Below, one piece after another: positions 7,694 to 8,053 of a stretch of DNA of 20,000 bases; position 1 is the first letter of the stretch; the number at the start of each line of letters is the position of its first letter. The notes under the pieces are model-generated. The model saw only the letters and a list, made by a program, of their open reading frames with translations, was not told the origin of the DNA and did not search any database. The DNA comes from Patellaria atrata CBS 101060 (Eukaryota), in assembly GCA_010093705.1 (NCBI GenBank), contig MU006089.1, forward strand, positions 207,655 through 227,654, written 5' to 3'. Made by a program: the position numbers and the translations under genes.

Positions 7694-7726
7694 TTCGGAA
7701 GCTGGAAGGTCTATCTTCTAAACTAT

Positions 7727-8053
7727 CTATTTGGTACCTGCGCGGGGAGCCGCAGAGAGTTGACGGTTGGCGTTAGCTGGAGCAGTACCCTGGCGGGACT
7801 TCACGATCTGCGTAAACAAGTACGAGCCGATTGCAAAGATGGCTACGAACGGCCAAACCTTCAGAGGTGAGGAGTTTGGAGAGCGATGTTGTTGGAGCGT
7901 AGGTGAGGGATTATGATTCGATGTAACTGCCTTTTGCTCCAGGAGAATTTTATTTGTGGATAGGAATCGATTGATTTCTGCTCGATTAAAGGTAAAGGAA
8001 TAGATGTATGGCCTAGTACGGACGGAAGAAGATAGAGACTTGGTGAATGACAT
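7727..8053 (-). CDS. Small predicted mitochondrial single-pass membrane protein (108 aa) directly upstream of and in frame with URA6; separate cistron or alternative first exon
   Basis: First in-frame ATG at 8053. MSFTKSLSSSVRTRPY...NRFLS is S/T/R-rich and acid-poor like a presequence; hydrophobic VWPFVAIFAIGSYLFTQIV is followed by KSR; stop TAG at 7729-7727, 33 nt before the URA6 ATG. Confidence 0.7.
   Translation of the reverse strand: MSFTKSLSSSVRTRPYIYSFTFNRAEINRFLSTNKILLEQKAVTSNHNPSPTLQQHRSPNSSPLKVWPFVAIFAIGSYLFTQIVKSRQGTAPANANRQLSAAPRAGTK

Follow-up and report, generated by a model that had tools for sequence, protein, structure and literature searches.

The stretch of DNA analysed here, hereafter the window, covers 20,000 nucleotides (nt) of contig MU006089.1 of Patellaria atrata CBS 101060. 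Our subject is a pair of tandem genes on its minus strand: a small open reading frame (ORF) and, directly downstream of it, URA6, which encodes a UMP-CMP kinase. The small ORF, the upstream cistron of the pair, opens with the ATG at 8053, and its coding sequence, stop codon included, spans 7727..8053 on the minus strand; supported by the reading frame, by relatives and by substitution rates, it encodes a small membrane protein of 108 amino acids. Read on the minus strand, its 3' end is GCA GGT ACC AAA TAG; then come ATA GTT TAG AAG ATA GAC CTT CCA GCT TCC GAA, and the ATG of URA6 at 7693. The spacer between the two cistrons (7694..7726, minus strand) is 33 nt long and contains no ATG. The distance from the small-ORF ATG to the URA6 ATG is 360 nt, hence the two genes are in the same frame in the window, and exactly two TAG codons stand between them: the stop of the small ORF at 7727-7729, and a second one, in the spacer, at 7718-7720. 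This layout, with its common frame, two stops, gap of 33 nt and tail sequence, had been described in an earlier note on the same DNA, and both the sequence and the ORF coordinates bear it out.

The URA6 gene is modelled in two exons on the minus strand, at 7363..7693, starting with the ATG at 7693, and at 6891..7249, stop codon included. They are separated by an intron of 113 nt (7250..7362, minus strand), read from the sequence, which runs from GTGAGT to TAG and is in phase 1. Under this two-exon model, the product has 229 amino acids. The first exon matches Pfam ADK (9.8e-25) and TIGR01359 (5.6e-35), and the second exon, a continuous ORF, matches the same two families; TIGR01359 is the top NCBIfam match for both exons, with 120.9 and 93.7 bits. 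The intronless URA6 homologue of locus L019, one of the metagenome loci introduced below, scores 229.9 bits against the same model, whose cut-off is 207.6. Compared by eye, the exon junction, which falls between LIDG and FPRKMD, agrees with the intronless URA6 of L019 and with yeast Ura6. The start Met of URA6 in the window aligns with residue 1 of URA6 in loci L002, L004, L009, L010, L011 and L016.

Relatives of the small protein were collected with phmmer over 1.84 billion representative proteins, at E <= 1e-3. The search found 30 proteins, namely the window protein and 29 relatives, all of them stand-alone and between 71 and 169 amino acids long; a profile search of a word-indexed protein database found 8 proteins, whose names are uninformative. 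Between related loci, the ratio of nonsynonymous to synonymous substitution rates (dN/dS) of the small ORF ranges from 0.17 to 0.41 in 11 of 11 pairs; for the first 100 codons of URA6, it ranges from 0.01 to 0.14 in seven of eight pairs, and reaches 0.54 in one nearly identical pair. Since the small ORF has 29 relatives and a dN/dS below 1, it is no chance ORF: the conservation upstream of URA6 that the earlier note proposed to look for is present, together with purifying selection. We consider it highly probable that this ORF is a real, separate and functional gene for a small protein, and not an exon of URA6. In seven of the eight pairs for which both genes were tested, the small ORF has diverged less at synonymous sites than the first 100 codons of URA6 (for example, 0.43 versus 0.77, and 0.37 versus 0.83), the exception being the near-identical pair L010/L011. 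This lower divergence may reflect an additional constraint at the nucleotide level, such as the avoidance of ATG or the presence of embedded signals.

The alignment of the family has a variable N-terminal part with an R-x-F-x-T consensus column, a conserved core, SPLKVWPFVAIFAxGTxLFxxIVKxRxGT, and a short C-terminal tail that often reads SSRPF or PSRP immediately before the stop: conservation at the protein level extends up to the stop codon. Positions P68, I72 and G76 are invariant, and W67, F80, R87, G89 and P103 are conserved in at least 90% of the members. In the window protein, composition and consensus delimit a presequence-like N-terminus, residues 1-33 (7955..8053, minus strand, limits approximate), which is basic and rich in Ser and Thr, and ends with RFLST; this R-x-F/L-S-T motif may be a mitochondrial processing motif. 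Hydrophobicity, AlphaFold2 and the alignment agree on a single hydrophobic helix at residues 66-87 (7793..7858, minus strand), with a WPFVAIFAIGSYLF core, where conservation within the family is highest. Ahead of this helix, the window protein has 9 Lys and Arg versus 2 Asp and Glu, and 28% of Ser and Thr; its Kyte-Doolittle maximum is 1.72, at residue 66. In 29 of the 30 members, hydrophobicity is highest on the conserved WP-type segment (in P0023, elsewhere), and the region that precedes the peak is basic in those 29, with 4-20 Lys and Arg versus 0-6 Asp and Glu, and 12-33% of Ser and Thr. AlphaFold2, applied to the family alignment, predicts one helix at residues 67-87, a block where the predicted local distance difference test (pLDDT) is 81-97, and no other ordered part, with a mean pLDDT of 68.6. 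Thus the presequence-like N-terminus and the single transmembrane helix that had been proposed for this protein are both recovered.

Pfam has no family for the window protein, and the 30 members together gave just four single-member matches, with E between 0.04 and 0.076; a profile search of the PDB returned no chain at E <= 10. With language-model features, computed for the whole protein and for residues 45-108, the nearest named clusters are ESSS/NDUFB11, SDH7, COX7B and NDUFC1, all of them small, accessory subunits with one helix in mitochondrial respiratory complexes, at scores of 0.76-0.88 overall (0.84-0.88 with the whole protein, 0.78-0.84 with residues 45-108 for the closest ones) which are all under the bar of 0.9, so that these clusters are leads only. 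The small protein is like them in its size, its presequence and its one helix: this is a resemblance in kind and not a membership, with scores under 0.9 and no match in Pfam or the PDB. It appears to be a single-pass protein with a presequence, of a type known from the mitochondrial inner membrane. The weak side of this assignment is the location itself, which leans on composition, on look-alikes under the 0.9 bar, and on the analogy with yeast Min9 discussed below.

To see the small gene in its surroundings, metagenome contigs were searched with the small-protein profile alone. This gave 95 pattern matches, among which 19 loci, labeled L001 to L019, encode a relative; by construction, URA6 genes that lack the small ORF are invisible to such a search. 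Some loci are duplicates in the small ORF (L003 = L005; L012 = L013 = L014; L015 = L017), and the 14 distinct locus sequences were grouped into about eight lineages. Locus L001 is not assessable, as its contig ends inside the small ORF. In all 18 assessable loci, URA6 lies directly downstream of the small ORF, on the same strand. The spacer between the stop codon of the small ORF and the ATG of URA6 is 25-89 nt long in 17 of these 18 loci: 25 nt in L015 and L017; 33 nt in L010, L011 and L016; 37 nt in L012, L013 and L014; 39 nt in L003 and L005; 46 nt in L009; 48 nt in L007; 49 nt in L008; 52 nt in L006; 80 nt in L019; 84 nt in L004; and 89 nt in L002. The remaining locus, L018, has a spacer of 229 nt. 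Outer neighbours vary: of the two genes that flank the pair in the window, the Prp28-like helicase is found in 0 of the 19 loci, and eIF3m in 6 of the 19, so that only the small gene and URA6 are held together. They form an old, tight tandem pair whose position is conserved. The earlier proposal of an old two-product locus stands for this part, a conserved stand-alone gene immediately upstream of URA6 in 18 of 18 loci; its other part, a kinase anchored to mitochondria by fusion, is not supported, as detailed further on.

Such spacing constrains the way in which the pair can be transcribed. The 3' end of a first gene and the promoter of a second cannot both fit into 25-89 nt of spacer, and the messenger RNA (mRNA) of the small gene must consequently at least overlap URA6. 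It had been noted that almost no intergenic room is left for a separate promoter, and this holds both in the window, with its 33 nt, and in the 17 loci with short spacers. On the other side of the small ORF, a DDX23/Prp28-like DEAD-box helicase, recognized by its helicase domains, is transcribed divergently on the plus strand from its ATG at 8366. The 312 nt that separate the two ATGs (8054..8365) form the presumed promoter region: given the 33-nt spacer, this is the only promoter room for the pair, and it is common to the pair and to the divergent helicase. Upstream of the small ORF, the window has an out-of-frame ATG at 8082-8084, which suggests that transcription starts within about 30 nt of the small-ORF ATG. 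By reading, the nearest upstream ATG is about 30-60 nt before the small-ORF ATG in the window and in L002, L004, L006, L007 and L010-L012, which hints at a short leader, of a kind that would favour leaky scanning.

The distribution of ATGs downstream of this first start codon is the second clue on expression. In the window, there is no ATG, in any frame, across the 357 nt between the start of the small ORF at 8053 and that of URA6 at 7693. Loci L002, L003/L005 and L006-L010 are likewise free of ATG, as is L011 if its start is the same as in L010; this amounts to four of the eight lineages, window included. A mononucleotide shuffle predicts 2.8-4.1 ATGs in the ATG-free loci, with p of 0.014-0.058 per locus. 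In the same loci, 4-10 ATGs occur in an equal length of URA6 coding sequence, and 1-4 in the 200 nt that precede the small ORF. In seven of nine loci, the interval from start to start exceeds every other ATG-free run on both strands; it is tied in one, and comes second in one. In the whole 20-kb window, it takes third place among about 695 intervals between ATGs, with longer runs of 421 and 366 nt elsewhere. At the AUG of URA6, position -3 is a purine in 9 of 11 contexts.

These observations can be assembled in the following way. A single promoter upstream of 8053 would yield an mRNA carrying both the small ORF and URA6. Ribosomes initiating at the first AUG would produce the microprotein, and ribosomes scanning past it would find 357 nt devoid of AUG in every frame before reaching that of URA6. 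An extra transcript carrying URA6 only, with its start site inside the small ORF, may coexist with the longer one. A dicistronic unit is, in our judgment, the best reading of the locus, on the strength of the spacing and of the avoidance of ATG. That one mRNA carries both ORFs and is read by leaky scanning in this lineage seems to us evenly poised; as for the best explanation taken as a whole, a separate small gene and URA6 sharing one promoter and expressed from a bicistronic mRNA by leaky scanning, we lean slightly in its favour.

Several points weigh against it. Under a shuffle that preserves dinucleotides, the expected number of ATGs falls to 1.7-3.0, and the probability of finding none is 0.02-0.13 per locus, which makes the depletion no more than suggestive; Fisher's method gives p of about 0.01 for the four lineages without ATG, a post hoc choice, and of about 0.02 for all eight lineage representatives. 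The other lineages do have ATGs between the two starts: L012-L015 and L017 have one in frame, coding for a Met in the helix, L019 has one, L016 has three, one of them in the spacer, and L018 has six. With four of eight lineages in this situation, leaky scanning cannot be the universal mechanism. Neither is the context of the first AUG consistently weak: among 11 distinct contexts, position -3 is a purine in 6 (window, L002, L004, L010, L016 and L018) and a pyrimidine in 5 (seen in L003, L005-L009, L012, L015 and L019). Just two public sequencing runs match the stretch, both of DNA from one sample; no joints were found in them, and they are silent on expression. Finally, PMC4503453 reports no polycistronic transcripts in the ascomycete Neurospora crassa.

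The main competitor draws on these same points. Two separate but overlapping transcripts could exist, that of URA6 starting within the coding region of the small gene, and that of the small gene either running into URA6 as a non-productive 3' untranslated region (UTR) or ending within it. The tight spacing would then be kept by a URA6 core promoter embedded in the small gene, and the ATG-free stretch would be a matter of 5' UTR hygiene and of chance. This arrangement would account for the lineages with 1-6 ATGs between starts, in which scanning would be inefficient, for the weakness of the depletion under the dinucleotide shuffle, and for the reported absence of polycistronic mRNAs in N. crassa (PMC4503453); in addition, the 3' half of the spacer is conserved among L003 and L006-L009, as a core promoter or a leader might be. 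Yet in nine loci the ATG-free run begins exactly at the ATG of the small ORF, and not part-way through it, and a spacer of 25-89 nt has no room for the 3' UTR and polyadenylation signal of the small gene, so that overlap is needed anyway. We regard separate transcripts as unlikely, with enough in their favour to deserve weight.

A different kind of explanation would join the two genes into one protein. According to the earlier note, removal of a 36-nt intron, GTACCA..TTCCAG (7702..7737, minus strand), or of an 87-nt intron reaching from 7788 to 7702, would conditionally yield an isoform of Ura6 anchored to mitochondria. The stretch 7737..7702 is indeed present and its excision would join the two frames into 105 + 3 + 229 = 337 amino acids under the exon model, and GTACCA does work as a donor in the eIF3m intron of the window, as the note had remarked. 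The frame itself, common to both genes in the window, is not kept elsewhere: relative to the small ORF, URA6 is in frame 0 in 7 loci, +1 in 9 and +2 in 2. Among the close relatives L003 and L006-L009, spacers of 39, 52, 48, 49 and 46 nt correspond to frames 0, 1, 0, 1 and 1, and these insertions and deletions, which are not multiples of three, indicate that the spacer evolves as non-coding sequence. With such frames and no fused relative, neither the 36-nt intron nor readthrough of the stops is supported. The 36-nt candidate has no conserved counterpart in relatives and, by reading, no CTRAY-type branch site; it is very short, shorter than the two modelled introns of 60 and 113 nt. The alternative donor at 7788 falls on a near-invariant Gly, and the idea that a splice donor is conserved there was considered and rejected: among the 15 loci tabulated besides the window, the codon is GGT in three (L003, L004 and L016, as in the window), GGC or GGA in the other 11 that have the R-x-G motif, and L019 lacks the motif. 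Past this Gly, the tail is conserved as protein up to the stop.

Nor did direct searches bring out a fused protein. All 29 relatives lack a fused kinase and stay within 169 amino acids; a search among longer proteins found no fused form among the 7999 candidates scored, which is weak evidence; and a feature search with residues 45-108 returned no uridylate kinase cluster. A structure search of the Atlas gave one Ascomycota cluster of 317 amino acids, named 'uridylate kinase family' and aligned to residues 53-102 with a template modelling (TM) score of 0.35, a lead only, which is the remaining point on the side of fusion. The spliced presequence-helix-kinase protein was therefore set aside, as frame, donor and fused homologues all fail in relatives, and we hold the conditional fusion to be very improbable. 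Readthrough of the TAG codons, which would also give a fused protein, or a regulatory upstream ORF (uORF) with a functionless peptide, is more improbable still. Both would fit the window, where the frames agree, just two TAGs intervene, and the small ORF sits ahead of the main one as a uORF would. Against them, the frame is not conserved, the stop codon of the small ORF varies between TAG, TGA and TAA across loci, and the peptide is under purifying selection, with an invariant helix core that is conserved where nucleotides are saturated. Typical regulatory uORFs are also far shorter than the 88-126 codons of this family. Gene models in which the small ORF is spliced to URA6, or is discarded as 5' UTR, are probably mistaken; those that present a fused URA6 may be products of predictors that bridge the stops.

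Budding yeast offers a comparison. By the convention of systematic names, yeast MIN9 should lie directly upstream of URA6 on the same strand; the earlier note, too, places them side by side. The two names given there agree with the supplement of PMC5494306 (Morgenstern et al. 2017): YKL024C is URA6, a uridylate kinase, and YKL023C-A is MIN9, a protein of 8.5 kDa and 75 amino acids, of class 1 mitochondrial assignment, in the matrix or inner membrane, a location backed by fractionation and by tagging with green fluorescent protein (GFP) at the C-terminus. Compared by eye, Min9 is like the window family in being small, in its N-terminal basic stretch with R-F-Y-S-S, and in its one hydrophobic segment with G-T; it differs by having neither the W-P motif nor the R-x-G-T motif of the tail. 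The family has the architecture of Min9, a basic N-terminus and one helix, as well as the position directly upstream of URA6, and by this analogy, drawn by eye, it may be called Min9-like in position and architecture. In our literature search, no paper connected URA6, or uridylate kinase, with a bicistronic or polycistronic arrangement or with an upstream ORF; no main text mentioned Min9, and one paper just lists YKL023C-A among uncharacterised genes.

Among the closest known systems are the bicistronic genes of green algae, which use leaky scanning (PMC7896298, PMC11291117). In PMC11291117, co-transcription is demonstrated with long-read complementary DNA, and leaky scanning is proven by mutation and accompanied by a depletion of start codons upstream of the second ORF. 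The likeness lies in a first ORF of small size (in one alga, its median length is 291 nt) that often encodes a small membrane protein, such as TOM22 or OST4, in a short spacer (median 40 nt in one species), and in the fact that the two ORFs are often in different frames. The fungal pair differs in that its co-transcription and mechanism are proposed from its sequence, in that the context of its first AUG is not consistently weak, and in that half of its lineages are not ATG-free. In fungi, the polycistronic transcripts of Agaricomycetes also involve tandem fungal genes on the same strand and one mRNA, in a configuration conserved among relatives; as described in PMC4503453, they are read-through units whose genes are also transcribed independently, and they may interfere with the downstream gene. 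In contrast to them, the small gene and URA6 are too close to each other to be independent units. The locus would join a known kind, that of eukaryotic bicistronic loci with an upstream microprotein, its bicistronic expression being a proposal.

It is tempting to go further, and to see here an ancient bicistronic unit of the Ascomycota, from filamentous fungi to budding yeast with its Min9-URA6 pair, whose single capped mRNA would provide a mitochondrial inner-membrane microprotein and a cytosolic UMP kinase, leaky scanning setting the ratio of the two. We put this forward tentatively, and would sooner bet against it. If true, this would amount to an 'operon' of housekeeping genes, conserved in a phylum believed to lack polycistronic mRNAs. 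The mitochondrial inner membrane is home to dihydroorotate dehydrogenase in most fungi, and, as pure speculation, such a unit might couple the supply of pyrimidine nucleotides to a protein associated with the respiratory chain. Should the pair be carried by one mRNA, it would be a case of bicistronic translation in ascomycetes, yeast possibly included, that is simple, conserved and amenable to genetics. The family itself gives a first handle on an unannotated group of small mitochondrial-type proteins absent from Pfam and the PDB.

Some observations on individual loci complete the description of the pair. The 229-nt spacer of L018 (L018:4139-4367) ends with intron-like signals before the URA6 ATG, namely GCTAAC, a pyrimidine-rich stretch and CGCAG, and by reading, GTGAAG and GTACCA occur close to its beginning. 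Possibly, this spacer is an intron of a leader common to both genes, in which case the URA6 mRNA would start at or before the end of the small ORF. The contig of L019 is 1084 nt long, and consists of a leader of 20 nt, the small ORF (21-317), a URA6 without introns (398-1033), and a further 51 nt past the URA6 stop codon. This contig may stem from a bicistronic transcript, or else from a lineage whose URA6 has no introns; its origin is ambiguous, given that the URA6 intron is also missing from the genomic locus L018. In L003 and L006-L009 (five of five), a conserved, telomere-repeat-like motif, AACCCCTAAACC, occurs about 60-100 nt upstream of the small-ORF ATG. We presume that AACCCCTAAACC resembles sites of the Tbf1 type, which non-Saccharomyces fungi have in growth-related promoters; it would then mark the promoter of the pair.

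On the other side of URA6, eIF3m, at 5285-6655 on the plus strand, is a convergent neighbour. Its intron of 60 nt, at 5502-5561 (plus strand), is in phase 1 and begins with the unusual donor GTACCA; its position is backed by relatives, since an intron is found at the same codon in L004, L010 and L011, with GTGAGC or GTGGGC as donor. The eIF3m gene of L018 is intronless at that codon, and reads through as ...EFTAAYNLL. In the divergent helicase gene, a Gly-rich ORF of 124 amino acids at 8326-8700, on the strand opposite to the helicase, is the shadow of a helicase exon and no gene. The first exon of the helicase is Pro-rich and, read from the sequence, has about three tandem copies of a 21-nt unit at about 8465-8530; public DNA contigs break exactly at this repeat.

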